Origin: an uncultured bacterium
GTDB taxonomy: Bacteria; Fidelibacterota; UBA2242
DNA length: 64,000 nucleotides
Assembly: GCA_964588795.1 (NCBI GenBank)
Contig: CAZPQN010000005.1
Span: 11,109-75,108 of the forward strand
Direction of reading: 5' to 3'
Shown here: positions 8,044 to 24,305 of the stretch, in pieces
Numbering within the stretch: the first letter of the stretch is position 1
Layout of the letters: each line of letters opens with the position of its first letter
Position numbers and translations under genes: made by a program
Notes under the pieces: model-generated
The model's input: only the letters and a program-made list of their open reading frames with translations
Told to the model about the DNA's origin: nothing
Database searches by the model: none

Positions 8044-10203
8044 TTAGAATAAATGCCCGATAGAAAAATACAACAGGTTCCGATCTCTCAGGTCGTATCC
8101 ATAATCGAGACTGATGGGACCGACGGGAGTGGGAATGACGATTCCCGCACTGACCGCCATCCGGGAATCGCGCCAGTTAAAGTTATCAATCCCCTCCCAG
8201 ACGTTGCCGAAAGTTCCGTACAGACTATAAAAAATACCGGAAGTCAACGGCGCGCGTAAACCTAAGCCGACTGTCCCGACTAAGTTACCCCAGAGCTCAT
8301 CCTGATGCCAGCCGGGCAGGGAGTGCAGGCCGCCTAACCTGAATTTTTCGTAGTGACTGAGGGCGACATTGATATAACCGATCCTTATATGGGTCGAAAA
8401 AGTGTACTTATCGGAGTAGGTTTCATAGTTCGAGGATTCGACGGAGATGCGGTCAAATTGTTTGAAATTGTCTTCGGATACCGAGTGTTCGTAACGCAGA
8501 TCGTTGAGGCGTCCGTTGCGTGGCAGGTCATGATCATCAGTATTATCAACAAAAATTCGGGACACGAGGCTGAAGGAGGTATAATCATATTCGCGGAGCG
8601 GATCGACGACTGATTTATAGGCGTGAATTTTTTCCAATTTAATACCAAAGGCGGTCAATCCGACGCGTTTTATCTGCAACCCGGCGTTGGCTTCCAGGCC
8701 CAGGCGATAATGTTCGCCAAAATCAACGCGGCGGCCGTCATCATACAGGGGGACAGTCTCGTAGCGATAATACAGCGAAGTGTAACCGGTGAAATTGGAA
8801 ATCAAAATCCGGGTAGAGCGGGCGTCCCATTCGATTTTGCGTAGCAAATCGCTGGCAATGAAAAAAACCTGATTATCTAAACCGGTGCCGAGTAAATTGT
8901 TGTACTTAGCCTGGAGGAAGGCGCTGGCTTTGCGTTCGCTGTCATAATGCGTTCCGAAGGAGAACAGGGTGCGGGCTTCTTCTTCCACCTCGACCATGAC
9001 ATCCGCCTGGTTCTGACCCACTTTGCGGAGCGACATGTAGACATTTTTGAATAAGCCCGTACTGAACAGGTTTTTCATACTACGTCGGGCGAGCGCGCTG
9101 TTCCAGGGAGCGCCTTCCTGCAATTGCATTTCCCGTCGCATGACGAAATTGCGGGTAACTCGGTTGTTGTTAAAAGTTATACTCCGGATCGTGGTCTGGT
9201 TTAGTTCCTGCTGTGAACGGGCCAGGTAATCGGGATCTTTTTTCTGATTGGTGGCGTACGGGCGGATGTTTTCAAGGTAGGGCAAAGTTGAGCGATAACC
9301 AGCCTCTACGAGGACACTCACCGAATCAAAATCTGCGGCGGAAATCTGGTCAATTTGCGGGCGGATCAGAACGTCAGCCAGTTCTAAATTCCGAGTATCG
9401 GACATAAACGACAGAGTATTCATCGCCTGCCCGAAAATTTCCAATACGTCGAAATTGGGCTTCAGCGGCAAAACCTTACTGCTGGCGTCCACTGCGATGA
9501 TAAATTCCGCTCCCAGCTCACGGGCGACATCGCAAGGCACATTATTGGTCAAGCCCCCGTCAACTAACAGCATCGAATCATACGCTACGGGCGCCAGGGC
9601 GATGGGAAAAGCGGAGCTGGAAGTCACCGCCTTGGCCAGATTGCCTTGTTTAATGACAACAGTCTTGCCGGTCTTGATGTCGGTGGCGACGATCCGCAGG
9701 GGGATCGCCAGGCTGTCGAAATCGGCCCGGGCCGCGAATTCGGGATAAACGGTCTCCTGAAAAATGCGCTCCTGCAAGGCCTGGGTCGAGAGCAGATTCT
9801 TGGGATAAATGACGTTGAAATTTTCATCAAAGCGCAGAGCAAATAAAGCCGGCAGTTCCATAATTTTTTGAGAAACGAATTCGATATCGCGAAAGGGTTT
9901 CGGAGTCAGCAATTTGCTCCAGCGGGTGCTCGTGACCAGCTTTTCAATTTGTTCCGGCGTGTTGCCGCTGGCATACAACGCCCCGACGATTGCTCCGACG
10001 CTGGTGCCGACGATCAGGTCGGGATAGAAGCCGATTTCCTCGAGAGCCTTGATGACACCGACATGCACAAAACCGCGGGCGCCGCCACCGCTGAGTACCA
10101 GCGCCGTCTTAACCCGGGTTGGTTCCTGCGCCCCCAAAACGGCGGTAATTATCAGCGTGGTGATGATTGACCGACCGAGATATGTCGCGGTGAAGCGTGT
10201 CAC
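8044..10203 (-). CDS. Patatin-like phospholipase fused to POTRA/Omp85-type beta-barrel (PlpD-like, type Vd secretion architecture)
   Basis: Signal peptide followed by GGGARG (oxyanion hole), GTSVGA (GxSxG) and VDGGLTNNVP (catalytic Asp). The C-terminal roughly 350 aa are beta-strand-rich and end in an aromatic residue (...SIGHLF). Confidence 0.85.
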   Translation of the reverse strand: MTRFTATYLGRSIITTLIITAVLGAQEPTRVKTALVLSGGGARGFVHVGVIKALEEIGFYPDLIVGTSVGAIVGALYASGNTPEQIEKLVTSTRWSKLLTPKPFRDIEFVSQKIMELPALFALRFDENFNVIYPKNLLSTQALQERIFQETVYPEFAARADFDSLAIPLRIVATDIKTGKTVVIKQGNLAKAVTSSSAFPIALAPVAYDSMLLVDGGLTNNVPCDVARELGAEFIIAVDASSKVLPLKPNFDVLEIFGQAMNTLSFMSDTRNLELADVLIRPQIDQISAADFDSVSVLVEAGYRSTLPYLENIRPYATNQKKDPDYLARSQQELNQTTIRSITFNNNRVTRNFVMRREMQLQEGAPWNSALARRSMKNLFSTGLFKNVYMSLRKVGQNQADVMVEVEEEARTLFSFGTHYDSERKASAFLQAKYNNLLGTGLDNQVFFIASDLLRKIEWDARSTRILISNFTGYTSLYYRYETVPLYDDGRRVDFGEHYRLGLEANAGLQIKRVGLTAFGIKLEKIHAYKSVVDPLREYDYTSFSLVSRIFVDNTDDHDLPRNGRLNDLRYEHSVSEDNFKQFDRISVESSNYETYSDKYTFSTHIRIGYINVALSHYEKFRLGGLHSLPGWHQDELWGNLVGTVGLGLRAPLTSGIFYSLYGTFGNVWEGIDNFNWRDSRMAVSAGIVIPTPVGPISLDYGYDLRDRNLLYFSIGHLF

Positions 10204-12799: not shown

Positions 12800-12971
12800 A
12801 ATGCACCCTCACGATTGCTGTTGAATTTTAGGCAACATTTGAAAGTCAGGCAAGAGAGAAATCAAAGAAAAACTGAGCGCCCCGATTTCGACGTTTTTCG
12901 GCCAAGAGCTGCATTTTCACTTGAAACCTAAGATTCAAACCCGTATTTTTAAGCTATGCACAGGAGAATTT

Positions 12972-13871
12972 ATGGATAGACGGCAATTTTTAAAGACCTC
13001 GGCTTTGTTGACGGGCGGCGCCTTGCTGCCAAAATCCTCCATTGTCCGGGCCCAGGCGAAAGCGCATAACCTAGTTTTGGTGAAAAATGGTCAACCGGCG
13101 GAAATGGTCAGCAAAGCACTGGATCTGTTGGGTGGAATTCAGCGCTTCGTCGCCACCGGGGAAGTGGTTCTACTCAAACCGAACATAAGTTGGGATCGCG
13201 CACCCGAATATGCCGCCACAACCAATCCCGAATTGGTAGCCGAGATGGTACGGCAGTGCCGCAACGCCGGAGCTAAAAAAGTCATTGTTCTCGATAATCC
13301 ATGCAATGATGCCCGGCGCAGTTATGCTTCCAGCCGGATTCCCGAATATGCAGAAAAAGCCGGAGCGGAAGTCAAATTCATGCGGGAAAATCAATACGTT
13401 GAGACTCCGATCCCGAACGGCACGAAGCTTAAAAGCTGGTTATTTCATCAGGATGCCCTCACCGCGGATAAAATTATCTACCTGCCGATTTTAAAACACC
13501 ATCGCCTGAGCGGGGCGACCATCGGTTTTAAGAATGTCATGGGACTGATTGGTGGTAATCGCGGTCGGATTCATTTCCCGTTTGCGGAAAATATCGTAGA
13601 TCTCAACCGGCGCATTGTACCGGTGCTGACCGTTGTTGACGCTATCCGCGTCCTCAAACGCAATGGTCCGGGTGGCGGAAATCTGCACGATGTTGAACAG
13701 ATGAATACGGTGGTGGCGGGGATCGATCGGGTGCTGGTAGATGCCTGGGGCGCCCGGATTTTCGGACATGACCCGTACACTTACGACTGGCTCAAACTGG
13801 CGCATGCCCAGGGTTTGGGCGAAATTGACACTGAAAAACGACCTCCTTTCATCTTTGATTTCAAGGCATGA
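12972..13871 (+). CDS. DUF362 domain protein with twin-arginine signal
   Basis: ATG at 12972 preceded by AGGAG (12962-12966); the track ORF starts at an upstream TTG. The N-terminus is MDRRQFLKTSALLTGGALLP...VRAQA (consensus RRxFLK). The DUF362-like body contains VLLKPNISW and VDAIRVLKRNGPGGG. Confidence 0.8.
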   Translation: MDRRQFLKTSALLTGGALLPKSSIVRAQAKAHNLVLVKNGQPAEMVSKALDLLGGIQRFVATGEVVLLKPNISWDRAPEYAATTNPELVAEMVRQCRNAGAKKVIVLDNPCNDARRSYASSRIPEYAEKAGAEVKFMRENQYVETPIPNGTKLKSWLFHQDALTADKIIYLPILKHHRLSGATIGFKNVMGLIGGNRGRIHFPFAENIVDLNRRIVPVLTVVDAIRVLKRNGPGGGNLHDVEQMNTVVAGIDRVLVDAWGARIFGHDPYTYDWLKLAHAQGLGEIDTEKRPPFIFDFKA

Positions 13872-15403
13872 AATTTTATAGCCGACCACTTCGCCTCACG
13901 GCTCAGTCAGTATTTCTCGGCCTGTTTCTTTTGACCGTCCTGCAGGCAACTTATCCTTTTCAGCCCTGGTTGCCTCCGGAGCTGTTTCTCTGGCTCGATC
14001 CCCTAGCGAGTTTCTCGACCATGATTGCCGACCGATTTTTTACACCGGTGCTGTTGCTAAGCCTTTTGGTTTTGCTCAGCCCGCTGGTCTTCGGGCGGGC
14101 TTTCTGCGGATGGGTTTGTCCGCTGGGCACGGTGATCGATCTGTGCGACAGGTTCATTGCTCCGCACACGGTGATCAGCTTGCGGCGCTACCGTCCAATC
14201 AAGTCGATCCTGCTGGTAATCTTTATTCTACTGGCCATTCTCGGGATACAATTGGCCTGGTTGCTGGATCCCCTGCCGATTCTCTGGCGGACGATTGGAG
14301 TTCCGGGAATGGCACTATTCTTTCTGATTATTGATACTTTAATGAGCGGACTGGGCGCAGTGGGAATTTTCCCGACGCTGTTTACCAGGCTTCAGGATCA
14401 GCTGGCCGGGTACCTTTTCCCGGTTGCTCGCCCGGCTTTCGGTGGTCTTTTCCTGCCTGTCTTAATTTTTGGGATTATCATCGGTCTGAGCAAGGTGTCC
14501 CGGCGGTTTTGGTGCCGTACGCTCTGCCCGCTGGGAGCTTTGCTGGGGCTGGTCGCCAAATTCAGTCCCTGGCAAAGAACGGTGGATGCAGAGCGGTGTA
14601 CAAGTTGTGCGATCTGCCAGCGTGGGTGCAAGATGGAGGCAATTGAACCGGATATTATGACAACTGAAAAATCCGAATGCATTTTATGCCAGAACTGCGC
14701 CCACGAATGCCCCACTGACGCCATCTGGTTTAGTTTCCAGGCGCCGGGACGAATGCGCTCGCCGGTTGATTTGTCCCGCCGGGCATTTATCGGTTCCGGG
14801 TTAGGGGCTCTGGCGGCGACCGGTTTTTTAGCCATTAATCGCCCTGATCCGCACCGTTCAGACCGGCTGATTCGCCCACCCGGCGCAATCCCGGAAAATG
14901 ATTTCAACGCCCGCTGTTTAAGGTGCGGCGAATGCGTCCGGATTTGTGCCACTTCCGGTAAATGTCTTCAGCATGCCATTGGTTACGGAGGACTCGAAAG
15001 CATTTTGACCCCCTTGGCGCAGTTCCGGCGCGGTTATTGTGAAATGAATTGCAATCTGTGCGGCCAAATTTGTCCGACCAAAGCCATTCGCCCCCTGGCC
15101 TTGCCTGACAAACAAAAAACTAAAATGGGGCTGGCCCTCTTTATCAAGGATCGTTGTATTCCCTACCGGCTTAACCAGAACTGCATGGTCTGCGAGGAAC
15201 ATTGCCCGGTAGCCGATAAAGCCATTCAGACCGAAAAGAGGATCTATCACGATGCGTCAACAGGTTTGGCGCGCGTGGTGGATTATCCCTTTGTCATACC
15301 CGAGTTATGTATCGGGTGCGGCATCTGTGAAAACAAATGCCCGCTCAGCGGCGAAGCCGGGATCATCGTCGTCCGGGAGGGTGAGGAGAGGTTGCCTACA
15401 TGA
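13868..15403 (+). CDS. Membrane polyferredoxin, a NapH-like / NapG-like fusion
   Basis: The N-terminal half is multi-TM with FCGWVCPLG and WCRTLCPLG (CX3CP) plus CTSCAICQRGC and CILCQNCAHECP. An internal SRRAFIGSGLGALAATGFLAI helix follows. The C-terminal half is collinear with NapG: LIRPPGAIPENDFNARCLRCGECVRIC, CEMNCNLCGQICP, CMVCEEHCP and CIGCGICENKCP. Confidence 0.8.
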   Translation: MKFYSRPLRLTAQSVFLGLFLLTVLQATYPFQPWLPPELFLWLDPLASFSTMIADRFFTPVLLLSLLVLLSPLVFGRAFCGWVCPLGTVIDLCDRFIAPHTVISLRRYRPIKSILLVIFILLAILGIQLAWLLDPLPILWRTIGVPGMALFFLIIDTLMSGLGAVGIFPTLFTRLQDQLAGYLFPVARPAFGGLFLPVLIFGIIIGLSKVSRRFWCRTLCPLGALLGLVAKFSPWQRTVDAERCTSCAICQRGCKMEAIEPDIMTTEKSECILCQNCAHECPTDAIWFSFQAPGRMRSPVDLSRRAFIGSGLGALAATGFLAINRPDPHRSDRLIRPPGAIPENDFNARCLRCGECVRICATSGKCLQHAIGYGGLESILTPLAQFRRGYCEMNCNLCGQICPTKAIRPLALPDKQKTKMGLALFIKDRCIPYRLNQNCMVCEEHCPVADKAIQTEKRIYHDASTGLARVVDYPFVIPELCIGCGICENKCPLSGEAGIIVVREGEERLPT

Positions 15404-15861
15404 AAAAACGTTTTGTTCTTTTTCTGATCACCCTCAGCTTCAGCGCCTGCGGTTCAAAATACTTCCTAAAACCCAACGAATATCAGGACTGGAACTGCTC
15501 CAAAAATCAAATGTACTCCAGCTCCAGTGCCTTAAAAAAAGTGCTGGCTAATTCCTATGACCTTTATGCTGGCTACCAGTTACAGCGTCTGCTTATCCAG
15601 CAGGTCACTTCACCCGATTTCAAGGAAGCCCGCATTGAACTTTTCTACACCAACGATACTAACGGCGCCCGCAACTTGTACCGCCGCTACCAGACTTTCA
15701 GCAAGCTCAGCATCGGTGAAGAGGGCAGTCAGAGTCCCGGTTTCGTAGCCTTTTACCGGCAGAATTGCTTTGTCCGGATCACCGCCAAACGGAATCTGAC
15801 GGGCAAAGACATTCACCTGGTTGAACTGGCCAAATTGATTGATGCTAAACTAATGAAATAA
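15400..15861 (+). CDS. Hypothetical lipoprotein
   Basis: MKKRFVLFLITLSFSACGS gives a lipobox L-S-F-S-A-C. ATGA overlap with the upstream gene. I recognise no family. Confidence 0.6.
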   Translation: MKKRFVLFLITLSFSACGSKYFLKPNEYQDWNCSKNQMYSSSSALKKVLANSYDLYAGYQLQRLLIQQVTSPDFKEARIELFYTNDTNGARNLYRRYQTFSKLSIGEEGSQSPGFVAFYRQNCFVRITAKRNLTGKDIHLVELAKLIDAKLMK

Positions 15862-15863
15862 CC

Positions 15864-16994
15864 ATGCGTTACTCCCGCCGTCAGTTTTGTCGGCATTTAG
15901 GCTACAGCCTGGCAGGTTGTTTAGCTGCTCCCGAGCTCCTGCCGCGGTTGTTGGGTGGCACTGTCAATGCGGATGATGAACGTTTCGCATGCGAGGCGCG
16001 CTTTTACACCAAGCTGGACGGTAGAAAGGTGCGCTGTTTGCTCTGCCCGCGGACTTGCCTGATAGCTGAAGGTCAGCGGGGATTCTGTCGCGTTCGAGAA
16101 AATCGCCGGGGGACACTCAACACGCTCGTTTACAGCCGGCTGTGCACCATCAACAATGATCCGATCGAAAAAAAACCGCTCTTCCATTTCCTGCCGGGTA
16201 CCAATGTGCTTTCAGTAGCCACCGCCGGATGTAATCTGCGCTGTAAATTTTGCCAGAACTGGAATATATCCCAGGTGGCGCCGGAATCTATCCGGGCTGA
16301 ATACACGCCTCCCGAACGTCTCGTAGAATATGCACGCCAGATGCACTCTCCCTCCATCGCGTTCACCTACAGTGAGCCGACCATTTTCACAGAGTACGTC
16401 TTGGATACTGCCCGATTAGCCCGTCAGGTAGGGATAAAATGTGTCAGCATTTCCAATGGCTTCATCAATCCCGAACCACTCCGCGATTTATGCACGTTGC
16501 TGAGTGCCATCAAAATTGACTTCAAGGCTTATTCGGACGATTTTTACCAGAATGTCACCACCGGACGCTTACAACCGGTGCTGGACACCATGCAGTACAT
16601 TCACCAGCAAGGCATCTGGCTGGAAATCGTGAATTTATTGATCCCGACGCAGAATGATGACGGCGCACAATTGCAGGCCATGGTGCAATGGATCGGACAA
16701 AATCTGGGTGCCGAAGTGCCGGTGCATTTCACGCGCTTTCATCCGCAGTATTTGATGGAAAACCTGCCACCTACCCCGCAAAAGAGCTTGGAAACAGCCC
16801 AGGCTATTGCCCGGTCGGCCGGATTGCAATATGTCTATATCGGCAACCTGCCCGGTCACCCGGCTGAAAATACCTATTGTGCCCGCTGCGGACAAAAGAT
16901 CATCGAACGGATAGGATATAGCGTCCGGTCAGTTCAAGTCCGCAACGGACGATGTCGTTTCTGCCAATCTCCGATACCCGGAGTATGGAGTTGA
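15864..16994 (+). CDS. AmmeMemoRadiSam system radical SAM enzyme, with a Tat-like N-terminal leader
   Basis: CNLRCKFCQNW (CxxxCxxC). The family-typical N-terminal motif is KVRCLLCPRTCLIAEGQRGFCRVREN and the C-terminal Cys pairs are YCARCGQ...GRCRFCQ. The leader is MRYSRRQFCRHLGYSLAGCLAAP. The Memo/AMMECR1 gene follows immediately. Confidence 0.88.
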   Translation: MRYSRRQFCRHLGYSLAGCLAAPELLPRLLGGTVNADDERFACEARFYTKLDGRKVRCLLCPRTCLIAEGQRGFCRVRENRRGTLNTLVYSRLCTINNDPIEKKPLFHFLPGTNVLSVATAGCNLRCKFCQNWNISQVAPESIRAEYTPPERLVEYARQMHSPSIAFTYSEPTIFTEYVLDTARLARQVGIKCVSISNGFINPEPLRDLCTLLSAIKIDFKAYSDDFYQNVTTGRLQPVLDTMQYIHQQGIWLEIVNLLIPTQNDDGAQLQAMVQWIGQNLGAEVPVHFTRFHPQYLMENLPPTPQKSLETAQAIARSAGLQYVYIGNLPGHPAENTYCARCGQKIIERIGYSVRSVQVRNGRCRFCQSPIPGVWS

Positions 16995-16995
16995 A

Positions 16996-18504
16996 ATGTT
17001 AACACGAGGATTAAAAATTATGCTAATTGCAAACCTGATTTTCAACAATCCCGGTTCGGCCCAGGAACGCCGACCGGCGGCGGCCGGAACATTTTATCCG
17101 GGCGAGGCTCAGGAGTTGAACTCGGAAATCGTGCAATATCTGAAACAAGCCGGAGCCAAAGTTTTGTCGTCCCCGCCAAGGGCGTTGATCGCTCCCCATG
17201 CCGGCTATGTGTACAGCGGTTGGGTAGCCGCTTATGCCTACAAGGAAGTCCGTGATTATCGTTACGACGCCATTATCATCGTCGCTCCGTGTCATGTCGA
17301 ATACTTTCCATTTGCGGCGGTTTACGAGGGTACTGCTTATGTCACCCCCCTGGGTAAAGTTGCAGTTGACACTAAGTTAGCCCGGGAGTGCACGACCCAA
17401 GACGGGTTGGTACGCCTGGCGGGTAACGGGCACACTTTCAAACAATTTGCCCGGGGTGAACACAGTCTGGAAGTGCAGCTCCCGTTCTTGCAGATTGTCC
17501 AGCCGAATACTCCCATCGTCCCGATCGTCGTCGGAACCCAGGATTGGCAAGTACTGGAATCTCTCGGTCGGCAACTGGGAAAAATTGCCCAATCCCGCAA
17601 TGTTCTTCTGGTAGCTTCCAGCGACCTGTCGCATTATCACTCTTATAGTGAATGCCAGAAAATCGACCGCCGTTTAGTTGCCGCGCTGGAGAAGTTCGCC
17701 CCGCACGACTTCTACCGTGGCCTTGTCAATGAGGAATTCGAAGCTTGCGGTGGCGGGCCGATTACTGCGGCTATGATGGCCGCGCAAATCGCCGGCGCCA
17801 ACCAGGTAAAAGTGCTTAAAGTCGCTAATAGCGGTGATGTTCCGATTGGGGAAAAGTCTCAGGTAGTTGGGTATTTAGCGGCTGTCTTTTACCAGGGACA
17901 AAGTCGGGAAAAACACAACGCAACGCTCGGTGAAAAAAAATCCAATCCCGGAACGTTAGACCGCCCGGAACAACTTTTCTTGCTTGACCTGGCTGAAAAG
18001 ACCATCAGCGCCGCTGTGCATAAAAAACCGCTCCCCTCACCCGCCACGATTCCCGAACGCCTGAAGGTTAAGCGCGGTGCGTTCGTGACCATTGAAAAAC
18101 GGCACGACCTGCGGGGGTGCATCGGCTATGTGTTACCGATGAAACCGCTTTTTGAAACCGTCATCGAGGTTGCCAGGCTCGCGGCGCTGGAAGACCCGCG
18201 TTTCGAACCGGTCAGTGTCAGCGAACTCAAGGACCTCAGCGTCGAAATCTCGGTGCTGACGGTCCCGGAAAAAATCAGCGACCCGAATATCATTGAAGTC
18301 GGCAAGCACGGAATTATCATCCGTCGCGGTTTCTATTCGGGACTTTTACTACCGCAGGTGGCTACGGATTACGGCTGGGATCGCGTGACATTTTTAGAGC
18401 ATACCTGTCAGAAAGCAGGTTTGCCGCGCGATGCCTGGCAAGATAAAAGTACCGAAATCTCCATTTTTTCCGCCCAGGTCTTCAGCCGGGAAAGCGTCGA
18501 ATAA
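16996..18504 (+). CDS. Fusion of Memo-like (AmmeMemoRadiSam protein B) and AMMECR1 (protein A) domains
   Basis: N-terminal half: PAAAGTFYPG, IAPHAGYVYSG, HSLEVQLPFLQ and SSDLSHYH (Memo). C-terminal half: RGAFVTIEKRHDLRGCIGY and LLPQVA (AMMECR1). A 27-aa hydrophobic leader precedes the Memo core. Confidence 0.88.
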   Translation: MLTRGLKIMLIANLIFNNPGSAQERRPAAAGTFYPGEAQELNSEIVQYLKQAGAKVLSSPPRALIAPHAGYVYSGWVAAYAYKEVRDYRYDAIIIVAPCHVEYFPFAAVYEGTAYVTPLGKVAVDTKLARECTTQDGLVRLAGNGHTFKQFARGEHSLEVQLPFLQIVQPNTPIVPIVVGTQDWQVLESLGRQLGKIAQSRNVLLVASSDLSHYHSYSECQKIDRRLVAALEKFAPHDFYRGLVNEEFEACGGGPITAAMMAAQIAGANQVKVLKVANSGDVPIGEKSQVVGYLAAVFYQGQSREKHNATLGEKKSNPGTLDRPEQLFLLDLAEKTISAAVHKKPLPSPATIPERLKVKRGAFVTIEKRHDLRGCIGYVLPMKPLFETVIEVARLAALEDPRFEPVSVSELKDLSVEISVLTVPEKISDPNIIEVGKHGIIIRRGFYSGLLLPQVATDYGWDRVTFLEHTCQKAGLPRDAWQDKSTEISIFSAQVFSRESVE

Positions 18505-18523: not shown

Positions 18524-20725
18524 TCACTTTTCCGTGGCAGTCAGGAAAAATAGCAGTGTCCCAACCGTAAGAATCAACAGTCTAACCAGCGGAATCCCCC
18601 AGACCGGGATTAAAAACACCGAAGTAAGGTAAACTCCCGCACAGGCACCGATGATGTCCCAGGCATATAATTTTCCGGCCGTGGGAACGGTGGCTCCCGG
18701 TTTTGACTCCTCGATGCGACGCGCCAGAAATGGTAACGTCACTCCGGCGACTACTCCCGCCGCAAATAGTAAAAAGTACAGCATTCCCGCCGTGGAGCGG
18801 GCCGAAAGTGGAAGATAGCCCGGCAGACATAAAATTATGGACAACAACAGCAGGGTTAAAAAGATATGCCTGACTGTGAGCTTGCGTAACGCCTTAACTT
18901 TAAGTTCCAAGAGCGCCCCACTGCCTGAACCCACCATAAAACACAGCATCAGCATTACCATGCGTAAATACAGACCGCCCACGTAGATCTGGAACAGAAT
19001 CAGGGACGTGGTTTCAATTGCCATCACGATAAAACCTACCATCAACATGTAGAACGGCCACACCGCCCGGTGATTCTTCTGGTGTCTTAACCACCACAGA
19101 ACCAAAATTACAGCGATAAAGATAGTCAACAGGAAGCAGATACTGGGAATCTGCCATAGCTTCTGATAGATATTTTTAATCCATCCGCCGGTTTGCTGGT
19201 CCCATAAAATCGTGTCGTAATAAAATCCGATCGGAGCCAAAAAAGTATTAATCTCCAAAGCTGATTCACGGGCAATCTGTTCGGTCAGAAAAGCGACTTT
19301 AGCAACTGACACCCGGTCACGCAGAAAATGATCTGAAACGTACCGGTTGCTGATCCCAGTGTGACGCAGGCGATCGGTGAAAAATTTATAATCATTATGC
19401 AGAACCCGATCCGCGGCCAATAGATGCACGGTCAGACCGGGAATCCAGGTCGTTTGGGCGAAGACTCGCTGGACGCTGTTCTGGATAATCTTGAAAAAAG
19501 TGACGGCTTCAGCGACTAAATACTCTTCACCACCCGGAAAACTCAAAGCCATGACACCATCGCTGACCAAACGCCTGCGGACCAGATTAAAAAACTCGAC
19601 CGAATAGTACCGATTCCACTGCGCATTGACCGGCAGAGGGATATTAAGCAGCACCACATCGAAGGTGTCAGGATTATCAAGAAGATAATAGTAGGGATCG
19701 GCGATATGCTTTTCGACTAAGCTGTCAGTGGGCTGGCTGAACCGGTCAAGGGTCTCCTGTAAAACACGATCGGCGTGCAGAACGGAAATTTGCTGCACTG
19801 ATCGATACTTGTAGATTTCCCGATATAGTTCTGCATAACCCGGTCCGATAATCAGTACCTTACGCGGCTGAGAGTGATTCAGCAGTGCAAAGTGAACAAG
19901 CTCCTCGGCGCGGGCGACATCACCAGCCACCCATAAGGGTTGACTATCCCCGTAGAGAGCCTGATTATCGGTATATTCAACCGTCGTCAGTGACAGATAA
20001 GGTGACTCCCGGAATTCTACGACCCTAAACGGCCGCCATTTCAAGGCATTGAGTCGCTTAGGAAAGCGGTACATTAATCCCGCAATGAGAACGAGCATCA
20101 GATACAAAACAATTTTTATCGGTCGGGAACTGCCCCAGAACCAGACGCTACCTACGGCCATCGCCCAGACTGCCAGGCCCAAAATAAACAGGGTAGTCAA
20201 ACCACTCCACAGTAAGAGTGCGAACAACAGGCTACCGATCGCCGCTCCAAACATTTCAGCGATGTAGGTGAAGTGAATTGCCGATAAGCCGGTTTGGGTT
20301 TTCGACCAGGCAACCATCAGGGGAAAAAACAGGCCATTCAATAGACAGGGCCAAATGAAAACCATCAAGGTCCATCGAAAAATTGTCGCATTACCGACCA
20401 ATGCACTGGTACCGATGCCACTAATCTGGCGCACCATGAAGAGAAGCCCAGCAAAACCAAGTAAGGCCAACAGATAGACCGGGATTACCACGCGTAGTTG
20501 CTTGGCAGGATTTGCCGCAGTAAATAGTCGCCCGCCGAGCAGACTACCGATTCCAGTCCATAACAGCCAGTGACCAAGCGCAATGCACACGGTTAGCTCA
20601 TTACCATGAAAAGACTGGACTGCAATTCTTAAAAATGCCAATTGCCCAACCATGGATAGCAGACCAATTCCCGCGACGCACAGCCCACTTTGGAGTCTTG
20701 CTCTGCTTGTGGTCAGGCTACTCAT
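18524..20725 (-). CDS. Fused polytopic membrane / spermidine-synthase-like (aminopropyltransferase fold) protein
   Basis: 733 aa. About 7 N-terminal TM helices, a central soluble domain with VLIIGPGYAELYREI and a class I methyltransferase/SpeE-like layout, then about 6 C-terminal TM helices. Confidence 0.7.
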   Translation of the reverse strand: MSSLTTSRARLQSGLCVAGIGLLSMVGQLAFLRIAVQSFHGNELTVCIALGHWLLWTGIGSLLGGRLFTAANPAKQLRVVIPVYLLALLGFAGLLFMVRQISGIGTSALVGNATIFRWTLMVFIWPCLLNGLFFPLMVAWSKTQTGLSAIHFTYIAEMFGAAIGSLLFALLLWSGLTTLFILGLAVWAMAVGSVWFWGSSRPIKIVLYLMLVLIAGLMYRFPKRLNALKWRPFRVVEFRESPYLSLTTVEYTDNQALYGDSQPLWVAGDVARAEELVHFALLNHSQPRKVLIIGPGYAELYREIYKYRSVQQISVLHADRVLQETLDRFSQPTDSLVEKHIADPYYYLLDNPDTFDVVLLNIPLPVNAQWNRYYSVEFFNLVRRRLVSDGVMALSFPGGEEYLVAEAVTFFKIIQNSVQRVFAQTTWIPGLTVHLLAADRVLHNDYKFFTDRLRHTGISNRYVSDHFLRDRVSVAKVAFLTEQIARESALEINTFLAPIGFYYDTILWDQQTGGWIKNIYQKLWQIPSICFLLTIFIAVILVLWWLRHQKNHRAVWPFYMLMVGFIVMAIETTSLILFQIYVGGLYLRMVMLMLCFMVGSGSGALLELKVKALRKLTVRHIFLTLLLLSIILCLPGYLPLSARSTAGMLYFLLFAAGVVAGVTLPFLARRIEESKPGATVPTAGKLYAWDIIGACAGVYLTSVFLIPVWGIPLVRLLILTVGTLLFFLTATEK

Positions 20726-20737
20726 TTGCAGATTAAG

Positions 20738-21568
20738 TTACTGGGCTAATTGGACGCGCCCCGGCGCCCAGGCCACCCGAAACCCGAGAAAACTCAGGCG
20801 GGCGACAGGCATATAGCGCATACGATGTGAAGTATGCAGGGTTTCCGTTCCGTGATACCAGCTGCCTCCGCGAATGACCTTGAACATACTCGCCGCAGGA
20901 CCGGTGGGCTCGACCATCGTGGAATTTTCGTAGTAATCGCTCTTGTAGTAATCCTGGCACCATTCATAAACATTACCCGACATATCAAACAAACCGAGTA
21001 AGTTCGGCGGGAAGCTGGCTACGGGGGCAGCCTTTTTCCACTTATCTTTCTTTTCTACTCCGGAGTAGTTCGCCATGGAATGGTCCATTTCCTCACCGGA
21101 GGGATACTTCATTACCAGACCTCCCGAGCGGGCGGCATATTCCCACTGGGCTTCGGTGGGCAGACTGCCACCCACAAACTGGCAGAATTCGTTGGCTTCA
21201 TACCAGGTCACAAATACTACCGGATAGGAATCGTCGGCATAGTCTTCCTGTTCCGGCATCGCTTTGCCCGTCAGTCGACAATAATTTTTATACTGACCGA
21301 TCGTCACTTCTGTCAATCCCAAATAGAAATCAGAAAGGGTTACGCTATGGACCGGTGTCTCATCATCCTTCCCTTCTCCAAAGTGCTCACCCATGTCAAA
21401 CGTGCCGCCTTTCACAAACAGCGCGGGTATTCCGATGCGGCTGATTTTAACCACGTTGAGCCTGGTATCCTCACTTTTACGTACGGGTTCCGGAGTGCGG
21501 GCCAGCAAAGCCGTCAGCAGAACGACACCCAGGAATCCGACCGCTTTTTTAATTTCTCCACCGCTCAT
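20738..21568 (-). CDS. FGE-sulfatase-fold (SUMF1/EgtB/PvdO family) protein, membrane anchored
   Basis: N-terminal TM anchor, then VTWYEANEFCQ, TEAQWEYAARSG, GNVYEWCQDYY and RGGSWYH. The Cys pair of true formylglycine-generating enzymes is absent after RGGSW. Confidence 0.75.
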   Translation of the reverse strand: MSGGEIKKAVGFLGVVLLTALLARTPEPVRKSEDTRLNVVKISRIGIPALFVKGGTFDMGEHFGEGKDDETPVHSVTLSDFYLGLTEVTIGQYKNYCRLTGKAMPEQEDYADDSYPVVFVTWYEANEFCQFVGGSLPTEAQWEYAARSGGLVMKYPSGEEMDHSMANYSGVEKKDKWKKAAPVASFPPNLLGLFDMSGNVYEWCQDYYKSDYYENSTMVEPTGPAASMFKVIRGGSWYHGTETLHTSHRMRYMPVARLSFLGFRVAWAPGRVQLAQ

Positions 21569-21748: not shown

Positions 21749-24277
21749 ATGCGCACAACTCCTACCCGGCCGGGTATCCGCGCCCTGCCGCTGGTCATTG
21801 CCGGAGCGATCCTGATAGTTTTAATAGGGTGCAGAGGTGATATGTCAAGCCTGATCGTTCATTATCATCGCTACGATAATCAATATGCCGGCTGGAGTTT
21901 GTGGACCTGGCTCGATCAGGTCTCGCTCGATGCCCCGGCTTTTAAGCAAGATGGGTTCGGGCTGGTTTTCAAAATCGAGCTAAAAGAATATCCGCCCAAA
22001 GGCAACATCGGGCTGTTACCCAAACGGGGGAACTGGCTTGAAAAAGACGATCCCAACCGTTTCTGGAGTCGCAATCTGCCCGGTGAAATCTGGATCTTAC
22101 AGGGTGACGAAAAACTGTACCTAACCCAGCCAGATACACAACCTATCATCCGGCAGGCATTTCTTGATAGTCCCACGGAAGTGCTATTAGTCTTTTCGCA
22201 TCCGGTCGTTAAGCAGATTGTTCCCCGCCTCAATCCCATCATTACCCTGTCAAATACAGTAAAAATTCAACCGATAAAAGTGCAACTCATGCCTGCCAAT
22301 GCTGATTCTTCGAATCTTATCCGGCTCATTACTTCCACGCCGCTCGACCCGGCCCATCTGCCCGCCGAGGTGCAAGCGGCGGATTTCGAACCGTGTCCCA
22401 TTCAATTGCGACGGATATTAGATTCACCAAAGTATGTCAGCAACGTTCCACTGGGCGCTTTTTACACTCCAAAAGCAACGCGTTTTGCCGTTTTTGCCCC
22501 GGGCGCAACAGCCGTTCACCTGCAGCTGTACACTCGACCCAAGGGGGGACGTCCCCGTTCTGTACCCCTTCAGCAAATGAAAACCGGCATCTGGTCAGCG
22601 ACGGTTGCAGGTGACCTCAAAGGTCAGTATTATGTCTATACCGTCGCCGGTCCGGATCCGGCTTACGTACCCGACCAGGAAGTCATTGATCCTTATGCCC
22701 GTTGTGTCACAACCCACGACGGACGTGCCCTAATCTTCCACGATGAAACACCGGTGGCCGATTCGCCGGTCTTTCCCATTCAGGATGCTATCATTTACGA
22801 AATCCACGTCCGCGATTTCACCATCAGTGAAAACTCCGGCATGCGTTACAAAGGCAAATACCTTGGTTTCGCCGAGGAAGGTACGCGTCTGCCCGGCACC
22901 GATTTGTCCACGGGTCTCGATCATCTAACCGAGCTGGGAATTAACACCGTTCAGCTGTTGCCAGTCCAGGATTTTGAGCACGATAATCAGACTAACAGCT
23001 ACTTCTGGGGTTACATGACAGTCAATTTCAATTCCCCGGATGGTTGGTACACTACCAATGAAGACGACGCCAGCCGTATCGCAGAATTCAAGCAGATGAT
23101 TTCCAAACTGCACCAGCGCGGAATCAAGGTCATTCTCGATGTCGTTTACAATCATACCGCGGAGACCAATCCACATGTCCGGTACAATTTCAACGGGCTG
23201 GTGCCCAATTTTTACTATCGCCAAAAACCCGATGGAAGCTACTGGAACGGATCCGGGTGCGGGAACGAGGTGCGGTCCGAACAACCGATGGTGCGACGTT
23301 TCATCCTGGAATCGCTCAAGTACTGGGTCGAAACCTTCAAAGTAGATGGTTTTCGCTTTGACCTGATGGGATTGATTGACCTCGCCACCCTGCAGACGAT
23401 TGTCCGTGAACTACGGGCGATCAAACCGGACATCTTCCTGTACGGTGAACCTTGGACCGCCGGCGAAACCCCGATTCGTCCCACCGTCAAAGGGCACCAG
23501 CGCGGAGAAGGCTTTGCGGTTTTCAACGACAATTTCCGTGACGCGCTGAAGGGTCCGTGGTACAACACCGAGCCGGGTTACGTCCAGACGGGCAAAAACG
23601 TCGAACAGGTCAAGAAGGGCATTATGGGCAGTATCACCGATTTCGCCGACTCCCCAACCGAAGTAATCAACTACGTTTCCTGTCATGACGGACGCACGCT
23701 CTGGGACCTACTGGTAGCTTCGACCAGCGGTATGGGATTGCATACCGATACCGAATTAAAGGCGATGGATAAATTAGCCGCGTTTATTATCTTTACCTCC
23801 CAGGGCATTCCATTTATGCAGGGTGGCGAAGAATTCCTAAGAACCAAATTCGGGTCGCATAACAGCTACAACCAGCCGGATAAAATCAACAAAATCCGCT
23901 GGGACTACAAACAGGAAAACTACGATATTTTTCAGTACTACAAAGGTCTGATTGCTCTGCGCCAGACCCACCCCATGTTCCGCCTCACCGATGCACTTGA
24001 GATCAAACGCAATCTCACCTTTTTAGAACAATTGGGCTACGCGGTACCCGAACACTGTATCGCTTATCGTTTGCAACGGGGCACCTGTCAGGATAAATGG
24101 CGTGAGGTGCTGATCCTGATCAATCCCAATCGTGAATCCGTGACCTTTAAATTCCCGAAAAATAAATGGATTCTGGCGGTTGACCATACTCAGGTAAGAA
24201 GTGACATTATTGCGCCGGTTAATGCCAGTTTTCTGTCAGTTAAACCGATTTCTGCGGTGCTGATGTATCGTTTGTAA
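21749..24277 (+). CDS. pulA: Type I pullulanase (GH13) lipoprotein
   Basis: Lipobox LIGC. GH13 regions DVVYNHT, GFRFDLMG, YGEPW and YVSCHD. The N-terminus has carbohydrate-binding-like modules (YHRYDNQYAGWSLWTW). Confidence 0.88.
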   Translation: MRTTPTRPGIRALPLVIAGAILIVLIGCRGDMSSLIVHYHRYDNQYAGWSLWTWLDQVSLDAPAFKQDGFGLVFKIELKEYPPKGNIGLLPKRGNWLEKDDPNRFWSRNLPGEIWILQGDEKLYLTQPDTQPIIRQAFLDSPTEVLLVFSHPVVKQIVPRLNPIITLSNTVKIQPIKVQLMPANADSSNLIRLITSTPLDPAHLPAEVQAADFEPCPIQLRRILDSPKYVSNVPLGAFYTPKATRFAVFAPGATAVHLQLYTRPKGGRPRSVPLQQMKTGIWSATVAGDLKGQYYVYTVAGPDPAYVPDQEVIDPYARCVTTHDGRALIFHDETPVADSPVFPIQDAIIYEIHVRDFTISENSGMRYKGKYLGFAEEGTRLPGTDLSTGLDHLTELGINTVQLLPVQDFEHDNQTNSYFWGYMTVNFNSPDGWYTTNEDDASRIAEFKQMISKLHQRGIKVILDVVYNHTAETNPHVRYNFNGLVPNFYYRQKPDGSYWNGSGCGNEVRSEQPMVRRFILESLKYWVETFKVDGFRFDLMGLIDLATLQTIVRELRAIKPDIFLYGEPWTAGETPIRPTVKGHQRGEGFAVFNDNFRDALKGPWYNTEPGYVQTGKNVEQVKKGIMGSITDFADSPTEVINYVSCHDGRTLWDLLVASTSGMGLHTDTELKAMDKLAAFIIFTSQGIPFMQGGEEFLRTKFGSHNSYNQPDKINKIRWDYKQENYDIFQYYKGLIALRQTHPMFRLTDALEIKRNLTFLEQLGYAVPEHCIAYRLQRGTCQDKWREVLILINPNRESVTFKFPKNKWILAVDHTQVRSDIIAPVNASFLSVKPISAVLMYRL

Positions 24278-24305
24278 TCTGGTGCATATCATTGCTGAGG
24301 TACGC

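Follow-up and report, generated by a model that had tools for sequence, protein, structure and literature searches.

A widespread branch of AmmeMemoRadiSam-type radical SAM enzymes with conserved twin-arginine leaders, probably located in the bacterial cell envelope

The radical SAM gene analysed here, part of a 64,000-nucleotide stretch of DNA (hereafter, the window), belongs to a widespread and apparently so far undescribed branch of its family that, on the evidence below, seems to have moved to the cell envelope. The explanation that we favour, as probable rather than established, is a radical SAM system that reaches the envelope by Tat targeting and has a transmembrane electron supply of its own; transport by Tat, activity in the periplasm, the route of the electrons and the kind of substrate are each inferred. 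The observations beneath it are a conserved leader that is an add-on to the family core, partners with predicted export signals, split relatives whose Tat signal is encoded in trans, and domain fusions. Because a conserved RR leader recurs in at least four phyla and the operon products are predicted to be exported or membrane-bound, the whole AMMECR1/Memo/radical SAM system probably works in the cell envelope.

Radical SAM enzymes need SAM, a low-potential electron donor, Fe–S repair and 5'-deoxyadenosine salvage and, to our knowledge, are treated as strictly cytoplasmic. If the favoured explanation is true, a conserved, multi-phylum Tat-targeted branch would overturn that assumption, and it would have to be asked what keeps SAM chemistry going in the periplasm. 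Conservation of AMMECR1 and Memo extends from archaea to humans, with links to human disease, yet we know of no established biochemical function for either; Burroughs and colleagues are said to have predicted, in 2019, a role in isoprenoid modification. Another standing prediction for the two proteins is RNA base modification (PMC2034487); placing this branch in the envelope speaks against RNA as its substrate. Leader-bearing operons would also offer a tractable route to the substrate of the AMMECR1/Memo/radical SAM triad.

The enzyme and its leader

The enzyme, its leader and their motifs are as follows.

15864..16994, plus strand: AmmeMemoRadiSam-type radical SAM enzyme, 376 aa, core at residues 45–376 (TIGR04337, 394 bits; PF04055, 76.9 bits)
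15864..15971, plus strand: N-terminal leader, residues 1–36; RR invariant, F8 98% conserved, other positions of low identity
15873..15890, plus strand: leader motif S-R-R-Q-F-C
15909..15920, plus strand: lipobox-like leader motif L-A-G-C
15963..15971, plus strand: leader motif V-N-A
16035..16058, plus strand: extra Cys motif CLLCPRTC
16230..16253, plus strand: CX3CX2C radical SAM cluster motif (CNLRCKFC)
16878..16889 and 16953..16964, plus strand: further extra Cys motifs

The translation of this open reading frame begins MRYSRRQFCRHLGYSLAGCLAAPELLPRLLGGTVNADDERFACEARFYTKL and scores 394.3 bits against NCBIfam TIGR04337 (cutoff 220), with profile positions 1–333 of 349 aligned to residues 45–375. 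As the match begins at residue 45 with profile position 1, residues 1–44 lie outside the family core; both the frame and the N-terminal stretch ahead of a conserved core that a sequence-only reading had described are thus present. Three groups of cysteines (C123/C127/C130, C58/C61/C65/C75 and C339/C342/C364/C367) show no variation in the leader-bearing enzymes or, at the same columns, in the leaderless ones. Every other residue that is fixed in the leaderless set is likewise fixed among leader-bearing enzymes, which are therefore not degenerate. With a [4Fe-4S] radical SAM motif and eight more conserved cysteines, this passenger is cofactor-containing and would have to fold before transport. 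On sequence grounds alone, 15864..16994 is a real gene, and its product a functional radical SAM enzyme that resembles PFL activase and belongs to the AmmeMemoRadiSam family, its activity being a prediction; no RNA runs were listed when expression data for it were sought. The SAM and cluster motifs are as tightly constrained as in cytoplasmic relatives, an observation that is neutral between chemistry before export and chemistry in the periplasm.

Across 46 aligned relatives (51–66% identity), R5 and R6 of the leader are invariant, F8 is 98% conserved, position 9 is hydrophobic, position 10 is K or R in 50%, positions 12–26 are uncharged, P23 occurs in 65% and a basic cluster lies at 27–28. 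Residues 7–36 average only 23% identity to the window, versus 59% for the core, and the invariance of RR and near-invariance of F8 despite that divergence indicate that the leader is more than chance. R5 and R6 are equally invariant in an alignment of 101 sequences (leader identity 19–23% across the two alignments), and the RR leader is invariant over at least four bacterial phyla, with a family consensus of [ST]-R-R-x-F-L-K, then ~15 residues without charge, a Pro, a basic c-region and small residues. TIGR01409 matches 37 of the 101 family leaders (E ≤ 0.05; best E-value, 8.4e-6), and in other families it matched only leaders of known Tat substrates; the TatP regex, RR.[FGAVML][LITMVF] (PMC1182353), is satisfied in 118 of 145 family leaders. 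A few relatives carry Sec-type leaders without RR (L089, L103, L107, P0123, P0128 and P0138), which would export an unfolded Fe–S protein and so count against the Tat reading.

The window's own leader is less typical. A TATFIND-type rule asks for an uncharged, moderately hydrophobic h-region of at least 13 residues, a basic residue in the c-region and small residues at −3 and −1; the h-region here, HLGYSLAGCLAAP, has exactly 13 uncharged residues and is followed by E24, R28 and V-N-A at residues 34–36. Its S-R-R-Q-F-C-R (consensus, S/T-R-R-x-F-L-K) fails the TatP regex, as do the leaders of the nearest Marinimicrobia relatives, because of a Cys at the last position. Neither PF10518 nor TIGR01409 matched the window leader even at E ≤ 10, and neither matched the leaders of those relatives. 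The two curated Tat models and the regex thus do not recognise this leader, and the suggestion of a twin-arginine leader survives through the family (RR invariance and the TIGR01409 matches) and not through any score of the window leader itself, which we regard as a putative, atypical Tat signal. Bacterial lipoprotein signals call for a lipobox, [LVI][ASTVI][GAS]C, some 15–25 residues from the N-terminus. The lipobox-like L16-A17-G18-C19 of this leader is absent from the nearest orthologues; as putative processing sites, this L-A-G-C (residues 16–19) and V-N-A are equally good. Family-wide, 59 of 145 leaders contain a lipobox-like motif, versus 22.6 ± 3.9 in shuffles, with the excess driven by one clade (PC[LA]AAC). 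The AF2 model shows the leader as a detached lone helix (residues 5–30) followed by a disordered linker (pLDDT < 50 at residues 31–34); pLDDT of ~80 over residues 1–20 is rather high for a signal peptide and counts against a signal.

Among 160 related loci, 83 have the RR leader and 45 are leaderless, and ~54 of 150 representatives (50% clustering) start directly at the core. The comparison with family members that the sequence-only reading had called for accordingly bears out an add-on leader, but one that is not confined to genomes with an adjoining polyferredoxin, though it co-occurs with exported partners.

Operon partners and convergent genes

The genes around the enzyme, and the motifs within them, are as follows.

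12921..13871, plus strand: DUF362 protein, first gene of the operon (PF04015, 168.6 bits); 4-nt overlap with the next gene
13868..15403, plus strand: NapH–NapG fused polyferredoxin (NapG, NapH and Fer4_5 profile matches)
14105..14122 and 14513..14530, plus strand: CX3CP motifs in the NapH-like membrane part of the polyferredoxin, which also has two ferredoxin motifs
14774..14836, plus strand: internal polyferredoxin segment SRRAFIGSGLGALAATGFLAI
14837..14875, plus strand: Arg-rich polyferredoxin segment NRPDPHRSDRLIR, with a NapG-like multi-cluster domain after it
15400..15861, plus strand: small lipoprotein of no known family, with a signal peptide and the lipobox LSFSAC (15433..15450)
16996..18504, plus strand: Memo (AmmeMemoSam_B)–AMMECR1 (AmmeMemoSam_A) fusion (TIGR04336, 254.7 bits from residue 25; TIGR04335, 184.7 bits)
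18524..20725, minus strand: SpeE-like polytopic membrane protein, convergent with the operon (PF01564 and NF037959 matches; PF01564, 53 bits)
20738..21568, minus strand: FGE-sulfatase-domain protein with an N-terminal signal or anchor (PF03781, 175 bits), immediately 5' of the SpeE-like gene and in the same orientation

The five operon genes are translationally coupled, and export or membrane insertion is predicted for each of their products as well as for the products of both convergent genes. For the DUF362 gene the true start is likely ATG 12972, and the residues from there, MDRRQFLKTSALLTGGALLPKSSIVRAQA (12972..13058), form a canonical Tat signal that scores above cutoff with both PF10518 TAT_signal (22.9–25.7 bits) and TIGR01409 (22 bits); all full-length orthologues begin MDRR[KT]F[LI]K. 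Of 28 orthologues, 21 keep the internal RR and weakly hydrophobic segment of the polyferredoxin; the other seven are mostly partial open reading frames at contig ends. Kyte–Doolittle-type (KD-based) topology of this protein gave an extra hydrophobic segment and an unreliable transmembrane (TM) count, and NapH/PFD homology was used instead. It fulfils the criteria for dual Sec/Tat polyferredoxins (NapH-like TM segments with CX3CP, RR, a weak last TM domain, a positive tail and a multi-[4Fe-4S] C-terminus), which is a match of architecture and not a tested homology to the PFD of MLMS-1, a polyferredoxin of the NapH–NapG fusion type that is a dual Sec/Tat substrate by experiment (Tooke et al. 2017, PMC5449189). 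The earlier proposal that a NapG-like ferredoxin could solve the reductant half of the problem fits this type. We rejected the polyferredoxin as an obligatory neighbour: it is adjacent to the enzyme gene in Marinimicrobia, within ~5 kb in some Acidobacteria and missing at many loci. A family profile search with the small lipoprotein returned no match, and its lipobox is kept in ~20 Marinimicrobia orthologues encoded at the corresponding place in the operon.

With AMMECR1 and Memo encoded in the adjoining gene, the window meets the co-occurrence criterion of the TIGR04337 system. The Memo–AMMECR1 fusion has a Sec-type leader of 22–24 aa, MLTRGLKIMLIANLIFNNPGSA (16996..17061), ahead of the core RRPAAAGTFYP (from 17068), and a hydrophobic leader (Sec or lipoprotein signal) is present on 62 of the 63 Memo–AMMECR1 fusions that adjoin RR-leader radical SAM genes; none of the 45 leaderless loci sampled had a Memo–AMMECR1 or SpeE-like gene within 6 kb. 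The control group for this co-localisation is weak, as only two leaderless loci (L148 and L152) have Memo or AMMECR1 nearby, the partner being leaderless in both. A strict rule linking a leader on the radical SAM enzyme to a signal on Memo–AMMECR1 was seemingly broken by six short leaderless enzymes with anchored partners, an exception resolved by small downstream open reading frames with Tat signals. No tat genes were found within the window by a search with approximate E. coli TatA and TatC queries; the same search over the 160 loci gave a sole match, at L086.

The SpeE-like protein is predicted, from a positive-inside consensus of 47 homologues plus the window protein, to have an inside N-terminus, seven TM segments, a Rossmann domain (~222–525) outside, seven more TM segments and an inside C-terminus. 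Its gene is a conserved neighbour of the system in Marinimicrobia, Acidobacteriota, Calditrichota and Binatia. Spermidine synthases are marked by a GGGDG dcSAM loop and the catalytic aspartates of D-S-T-D-P; these motifs are absent here (family consensus LIGGG..GS, and N-L-P-x-P in place of DSTDP; window, IIGPGYA and N-I-P-L-P), so the protein has a SpeE-like fold but, as far as motifs can tell, is probably no aminopropyltransferase. The FGE-like gene holds the same position at 9 Marinimicrobia loci.

Split variants, mechanism and rival explanations

Relatives in which the leader is detached or replaced bear on where the enzyme works. At 7 of 7 assessable loci with a short leaderless radical SAM enzyme, a small open reading frame overlaps the stop codon of the enzyme gene and begins M[TKHR]RR[KD]F.. 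followed by a hydrophobic stretch; in three of these split loci the mature part of the small protein, KEAMFW[KR]RL, is the N-terminal strand missing from the enzyme, and at L086 the pair of genes lies directly after tatA–tatC. The small protein is predicted to supply a canonical Tat signal in trans to the short enzyme, transport itself being inferred, and such a pairing, in which a ~50-residue protein bears both a Tat signal and the first strand that the enzyme lacks, would be Tat hitch-hiking of an unusual kind. In five representatives the enzyme is fused to FMN_bind with the flavinylation motif D..[ST]GAT, and because 0 or 6 TM segments separate the two domains, both lie on the same side; FMN_bind domains are extracytosolic (PMC8238504). 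In other fusions the enzyme carries a signal peptide together with either a CBM_11 or a beta-propeller domain.

According to the favoured explanation, the enzyme would fold in the cytoplasm, where its [4Fe-4S] cluster and further Cys-bound metal sites would be loaded, and its N-terminal twin-arginine leader would direct it to the Tat translocase. Its final place would be the periplasmic face of the inner membrane, after release by signal peptidase or with a tether formed by the lipobox Cys or an uncleaved helix, where it may meet the Sec-exported Memo–AMMECR1 fusion and the lipoprotein and act on an envelope lipid, isoprenoid, glycan or protein, not RNA. Electrons for the cluster would cross the membrane through the co-transcribed dual Sec/Tat NapH–NapG polyferredoxin, possibly with the Tat-exported DUF362 protein. 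The sequence-only reading had objected that SAM would have to be available outside the cytoplasm, and that objection still stands, as its supply is unexplained: tightly bound SAM could be co-exported (for a single turnover, or with catalytic use of SAM), or SAM could arrive by way of the conserved 14-TM SpeE-like protein, the SAM-type binding domain of which is placed outside by the topology prediction. We know of no periplasmic SAM pool, Fe–S repair or 5'-deoxyadenosine salvage, and a literature search gave no precedent for exported radical SAM enzymes and none for Tat signals in the TIGR04337 family. We put forward only tentatively, as a proposal that may well fail in its details, the complete version: that Marinimicrobia, Acidobacteriota, Calditrichota and other phyla run an entire radical SAM/Memo/AMMECR1 system outside the cytoplasm, reduced by a dedicated transmembrane Fe–S wire, with SAM or a SAM derivative either bound to the folded enzyme as Tat exports it or delivered by the 14-TM SpeE-like protein with its periplasm-facing nucleotide-binding domain, and that the substrate of the triad is an envelope molecule, not RNA, at least in this branch.

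The same leader could instead be vestigial or re-purposed, with the enzyme on the cytoplasmic face of the membrane: it might be a docking site for a chaperone or partner (NarG-like), an amphipathic helix or a retained redox Cys-pair helix, and a membrane substrate would be processed further by the exported partners. We consider this unlikely, though it accommodates the failure of the window leader with both Tat HMMs and the TatP regex, the short or charge-interrupted uncharged region of some orthologues (only ~8 uncharged residues ahead of a charge), and leaders that are unusually Cys-rich (6.6% Cys; C-x3-C in 54 of 145). Some fusions also point this way: NapH-like ones have no RR ahead of the last TM segment and a K/R-rich linker after it, and a DsbD_2 fusion (P0131) has a K-rich linker, so that by the positive-inside rule the radical SAM domain is favoured to be cytoplasmic. 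SAM, Fe–S assembly and 5'-dA salvage are moreover cytoplasmic, and NarG retains a Tat remnant without export. It is harder to reconcile with RR invariance within a full n/h/c pattern, recognition of 37 of 101 leaders by TIGR01409, canonical Tat signals on separate small proteins (one directly after tatAC), Sec or lipoprotein signals on Memo–AMMECR1 at 62 of 63 loci, and the lack of TM segments between FMN_bind and the radical SAM domain in fusions.

The difficulty of SAM supply would vanish if the chemistry took place before export, with a single SAM-dependent modification of the enzyme itself or of a bound partner or cofactor, and the product-loaded protein then exported with no further need for SAM or a low-potential reductant. 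The nearest fold, PFL-AE, is indeed that of an activase, which acts once per substrate molecule, and Tat moves folded, cofactor-loaded proteins and hitch-hiking partners (PMC4273604, PMC10924467). We nonetheless hold this to be quite unlikely: the transmembrane polyferredoxin and the extracytosolic FMN_bind and NapH-like fusions imply electron delivery outside, and a Sec-routed Memo–AMMECR1 would not meet the enzyme before export. Scarcely credible, finally, is a wrong start codon, such that the leader is untranslated and the protein begins near the core, for example at the TTG of L29/L30. The ATG at 15864 has no obvious Shine–Dalgarno sequence ahead of it, and in-frame TTG codons do occur at residues 29–30; against this, RR and F are conserved as amino acids from phylum to phylum in an otherwise divergent leader, M1 is kept in 91% of the 46 aligned relatives, no in-frame ATG lies between M1 and the core (as the sequence-only reading had noticed), and the gene starts 2 nt past the stop of the upstream gene, which suggests coupling. 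On grounds of conservation we regard the alternative start as effectively refuted.

Comparison with known systems

Relative to the canonical leaderless TIGR04337 enzyme, presumed to be cytoplasmic, the window enzyme shares the full-length profile, the CX3CX2C, CxxCPxxC...C and CxxC...CxxC motifs and the partners Memo and AMMECR1, and differs in its 36–44 aa RR leader, in the fusion of those partners behind a signal peptide, and in its operon, which also encodes Tat and Sec/Tat redox proteins and lies beside the gene for a polytopic SpeE-like protein. Its AF2 model (pLDDT 89.9) is best matched by PFL-activating enzyme (PFL-AE; PDB 8FO0, 3CB8 and 3C8F; target-normalised TM-score 0.80, E ~1e-13), a family that by sequence, too, scores among the best once TIGR04337 is set aside; a PDB search gave no solved structure of a family member, only this PFL-AE-level similarity. 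Unlike the window enzyme, to which it is ~15% identical, PFL-AE is cytoplasmic and lacks both a leader and the extra N- and C-terminal Cys motifs, and its substrate is a glycyl-radical enzyme, none of which is present at the window locus.

A radical SAM cluster needs a much lower potential than quinol gives, so the analogy between the polyferredoxin and NapGH quinol dehydrogenase does not by itself solve the reductant problem. The two nevertheless share, also with the MLMS-1 PFD, a layout of NapH, RR, weak TM domain, positive tail and NapG-like part (PMC5449189); unlike NapGH systems, the window has no nitrate reductase or other known terminal oxidoreductase, and the candidate acceptor is the radical SAM enzyme. 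Three relatives (P0140, P0142 and P0145) share TM segments, FMN_bind with its flavinylation motif and a NapH-like Fer4_5 membrane module with the ApbE-flavinylated NapH-like and NosR-like extracytosolic electron-transfer systems surveyed by Meheust et al. 2021 (PMC8238504), from which they differ in a C-terminal radical SAM fusion that goes unmentioned in that survey; the window system, for its part, has a NapG-like periplasmic domain instead of FMN_bind.

The small and large subunits of hydrogenases form a Tat hitch-hiker complex, and the split relatives resemble such complexes in that a small protein has the Tat signal and the radical SAM enzyme has none. They are unlike them in that the signal-bearing partner is only ~45–65 aa, is encoded downstream of the enzyme gene and, in three loci, resembles the enzyme's own detached N-terminal strand, the window gene being the fused form. 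In PaoABC, too, the signal is on one subunit only (PMC4273604). The window enzyme is, like NarG, a cofactor enzyme with an N-terminal RR-type motif. NarG has only a remnant Tat motif and is not exported, whereas the leader here seems to keep the full n/h/c tripartite pattern, in the company of partners that are predicted to be exported.

The radical SAM gene and its operon

The ORF at 15864..16994 (+ strand; ATG start, 376 aa) begins with MRYSRRQFCRHLGYSLAGCLAAPELLPRLLGGTVNADDERFACEARFYTKL in both the ORF listing and the raw sequence, and its product (rSAM) is a bona fide member of the AmmeMemoRadiSam system radical SAM enzymes (NCBIfam TIGR04337; 394.3 bits, cutoff 220), with Pfam Radical_SAM spanning residues 119-266 and PFL-AE as the closest solved fold (TM 0.80). 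Profile position 1 falls on residue 45, leaving residues 1-44 ahead of the match, so that the arginine-pair (RR) leader lies outside the family core, as the sequence-only reading had placed it; that reading's accompanying observation, that no ATG precedes the core, also held: no further ATG occurs between M1 and the core. The start codon lies 2 nt downstream of the preceding gene's stop. All residues invariant in an alignment of leaderless relatives (n=35) were also invariant among leader-bearing ones, including the CX3CX2C, N-terminal CxxCPxxC..C and C-terminal CxxC..CxxC motifs, so the enzymes with a leader have not degenerated.

Operon and convergent genes (the first five genes are translationally coupled, with 4-nt overlaps or 1-2 nt gaps).
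12921..13871, +, DUF362 protein with an above-cutoff Tat signal (MDRRQFLK..)
13868..15403, +, NapH-NapG fused polyferredoxin with two CX3CP motifs, an internal SRRAFIGSGLGALAATGFLAI and an Arg-rich tail
15400..15861, +, small lipoprotein
15864..16994, +, rSAM enzyme (TIGR04337)
16996..18504, +, Memo-AMMECR1 fusion, whose profiles begin at residue 25, behind a Sec-like leader, MLTRGLKIMLIANLIFNNPGSA
18524..20725, -, SpeE-like polytopic protein (733 aa, 14 TM), convergent with the operon
20738..21568, -, signal-peptide-bearing FGE-sulfatase (SUMF1-like) domain protein, encoded 12 nt upstream of the SpeE-like gene

Among orthologues in related loci, every DUF362 protein carries an RR motif, and both the internal RR of the polyferredoxin and the lipobox of the small lipoprotein are conserved. 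The SpeE-like gene accompanies the rSAM system in several phyla; the positive-inside rule, applied to 47 homologues of its product and the window protein, gives a self-consistent arrangement in which both termini are inside and a Rossmann domain, predicted to face outward, sits between two sets of 7 TM. The family retains the SAM-binding elements of that domain, but its catalytic D-S-T-D-P, with the aspartates of aminopropyltransferases, has become N-L-P-x-P. The protein is a candidate carrier of SAM or dcSAM, or else a methyltransferase-like partner. The adjoining FGE-domain gene keeps its place in 9 Marinimicrobia loci; in the remaining sampled loci, none was found beside the SpeE-like gene. 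Further out, the window encodes a patatin-POTRA-Omp85 protein (8044-10203, -) and, at 21749-28384 (+), two pullulanase/alpha-amylase proteins, together with a phosphodiester glycosidase that has a T9SS sorting domain at its C-terminus. This envelope- and polysaccharide-oriented neighbourhood fits a diderm organism of FCB-group type. Its closest relatives point to an uncultured bacterium of the Marinimicrobia lineage, and metagenomes from freshwater, lakes and sediment contain it.

Conservation and Tat-like character of the leader

A [STDNGK]-R-R-x-F-[CLI] motif followed by a hydrophobic stretch precedes the core in 113 of the top 120 homologues (identity 51-99%), and the other seven appear to be cut short at the N-terminus. 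Across 46 aligned relatives, R5 and R6 are invariant, F8 is 98% conserved, position 9 is hydrophobic, and half of the sequences have K/R at position 10; charge is nearly absent from positions 12-26 (P23, 65%), basic residues group at 27-28 and acidic ones appear from 36-39 on. Mean identity to the window rSAM is 23% over residues 7-36 versus 59% over the core, a pattern that fits a signal peptide selected for motif and physico-chemistry rather than a folded domain. The AlphaFold2 model (pLDDT 89.9) renders residues 5-30 as a lone helix, followed by residues below 50 pLDDT (31-34) and a core above 90 from about residue 41. Representatives at 50% clustering, searched exhaustively, yielded 8,170 relatives, and among the best 150 of these, approximately 54 start at the core itself (325-350 aa; 'MKE..'), so that the leader is an add-on, a point the earlier note had proposed to check; the RR pattern matched upstream of the core in 36, of which approximately 30 seem to have true leaders, combining RR with an uncharged stretch, in proteins of roughly 373-396 aa, and the remainder were fusions or unclassifiable.

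The window's own leader is atypical as a putative Tat signal: it fails the TatP pattern RR.[FGAVML][LITMVF] (PMC1182353) at Cys9, its uncharged stretch is exactly 13 residues, and neither PF10518 nor TIGR01409 matched it, even at E<=10. Taken together, the family's leaders are clearly Tat-like in sequence: 118 of 145 RR leaders satisfy the TatP pattern, TIGR01409 matches 37 of 101 diverse leaders at E<=0.05, and, apart from it, the leaders matched only families that describe the leaders of established Tat substrates (formate dehydrogenase, TtrB, PvdN, MelC1 and the MADH small subunit). PF10518 and TIGR01409 also miss the polyferredoxin's internal RR segment, which belongs to a class proven to be Tat-dependent, and these models are thus not very sensitive. 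The hydrophobic part of the RR leaders (representatives P0001-P0270) is unusually Cys-rich (6.6% Cys; at least two Cys in 68 of 145, C-x3-C in 54 of 145). Acidobacteria conserve 'PC(L/A)AAC' (C-x3-C) and Marinimicrobia 'RRxFC'; the window leader has a perfect L-A-G-C lipobox, with C9 and C19 encoded within 15888-15920. These cysteines hint at lipidation, that is, a possible Tat lipoprotein signal, or at a retained functional, redox-active helix.

Related loci, split variants and domain fusions

We surveyed 160 loci, comprising 80 genome loci (Neomarinimicrobiota/Fidelibacterota, Calditrichota, Acidobacteriota and Binatia) and 80 metagenome loci seeded from leaderless members.

Partner genes by type of rSAM N-terminus.
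RR leader, 83 loci: Memo-AMMECR1 in 63 (hydrophobic N-terminal leader in 62), SpeE-like in 45
KR variant, 5 loci: Memo-AMMECR1 in 1, SpeE-like in 3
Hydrophobic without RR, 4 loci: Memo-AMMECR1 in 1, SpeE-like in 2
Short or split, 8 loci: Memo-AMMECR1 in 6, SpeE-like in 2
Leaderless, 45 loci: neither within 6 kb
Unclear, 15 loci: Memo-AMMECR1 in 3, SpeE-like in 2

In Acidobacteria and Calditrichota, some RR-leader rSAMs are directly preceded by a second DUF362 paralogue, only distantly related (~25% identity), which likewise bears an RR motif (loci L026-L028, L030, L034, L035, L039, L041, L042, L047, L053, L059 and L139). As these loci have no adjacent Memo-AMMECR1, DUF362 and rSAM may be a conserved pair in their own right.

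The eight short rSAMs start at 'M..VQCELCP', lacking both leader and first strand. One contig ends at the rSAM stop; in the other seven loci, that stop is overlapped by an ORF of 45-65 aa. These ORFs, absent from our ORF listing with its 50-aa cutoff, encode a canonical Tat signal, M[TKHR]RR[KD]F[LIM].. ahead of a hydrophobic segment (for example, MHRRKFLKLLAAVSLSATFAPLSTFA), and fall within L086:2105-4290, L096:2400-2760, L105:6900-7200, L116:1300-1600, L129:920-1300, L138:6900-7260 and L141:1350-1700. The mature part is KEAMFW[KR]RL in L105, L116 and L129, the very strand absent from the short rSAM (EARFYTKL, residues 44-51 of the window enzyme), and a different conserved peptide of ~35 aa in L086, L096, L138 and L141. 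At L086:2105-4109, tatA and then tatC stand immediately ahead of the short rSAM gene, which tatC overlaps and which the small Tat ORF follows; in none of the other 160 loci did the stretch surveyed show tat genes. Because small Tat-signal ORFs accompany leaderless short enzymes, the signal can apparently come in trans, resembling Tat hitch-hiking; these exceptions strengthen the Tat reading.

Fusions among the representatives (P0140, P0142, P0145, P0131, P0144, P0132, P0138, P0123, P0128 and P0146) run in the order TM, FMN_bind, NapH-like (Fer4_5 x2), TM, rSAM (P0140, P0142 and P0145) or TM, FMN_bind, rSAM (P0132 and P0138); others carry a signal peptide with CBM_11 or a beta-propeller, or DsbD_2 (CcdA-like), and in one type rSAM, Memo and AMMECR1 form a triple fusion anchored by a TM. 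The flavinylation motif D..[ST]GAT is kept in all five FMN_bind fusions, and zero or six TM segments (the sixth in P0142 by eye only) separate FMN_bind from rSAM, which places both domains on one side of the membrane. Meheust et al. described FMN_bind/NapH-like modules as extracytosolic electron-transfer systems with mostly unknown terminal reactions, without mention of radical SAM (PMC8238504).

A proposed envelope location and its alternatives

We favour, with some reservation, a Tat-targeted, envelope-located rSAM system as the best explanation of these observations. Its main rival, that the leader has a non-exported role at the membrane face, seems unlikely to us, given leaders that are Tat-like across the family and Tat signals supplied by separate ORFs; nonetheless, the window leader was weak in every predictor run, some orthologues have a charge-interrupted h-region, and no RR was found ahead of the last TM in the NapH-like fusions, which instead have a K/R-rich linker behind it. 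A few relatives, among them the rSAMs of L089, L103 and L107, have a Sec-type hydrophobic leader without RR (for example, MKKTILITFLSLGMFLVISFINTANLEA); such a leader is incompatible with moving a folded Fe-S protein across the membrane and does not sit easily with a cluster inserted in the cytoplasm before export.

rSAM chemistry in the periplasm also faces biochemical objections: no source of SAM, no repair of Fe-S clusters and no salvage of 5'-dA is known there, and a radical SAM cluster needs a stronger reductant than quinol. That rSAM chemistry might precede export, an alternative to which these objections to chemistry outside the cytoplasm would not apply, appears improbable to us.

Our literature search found no publication on a Tat-targeted or periplasmic radical SAM enzyme. 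The standing prediction for the AMMECR1, radical SAM and dioxygenase-like triad is RNA base modification (PMC2034487), with which an envelope-located branch would conflict, for that branch. Tooke et al. showed experimentally that a NapH-NapG fused polyferredoxin requires both Sec and Tat, with an RR ahead of a weakly hydrophobic TMD5 and positive charges behind it (PMC5449189), and the window polyferredoxin is alike in architecture.
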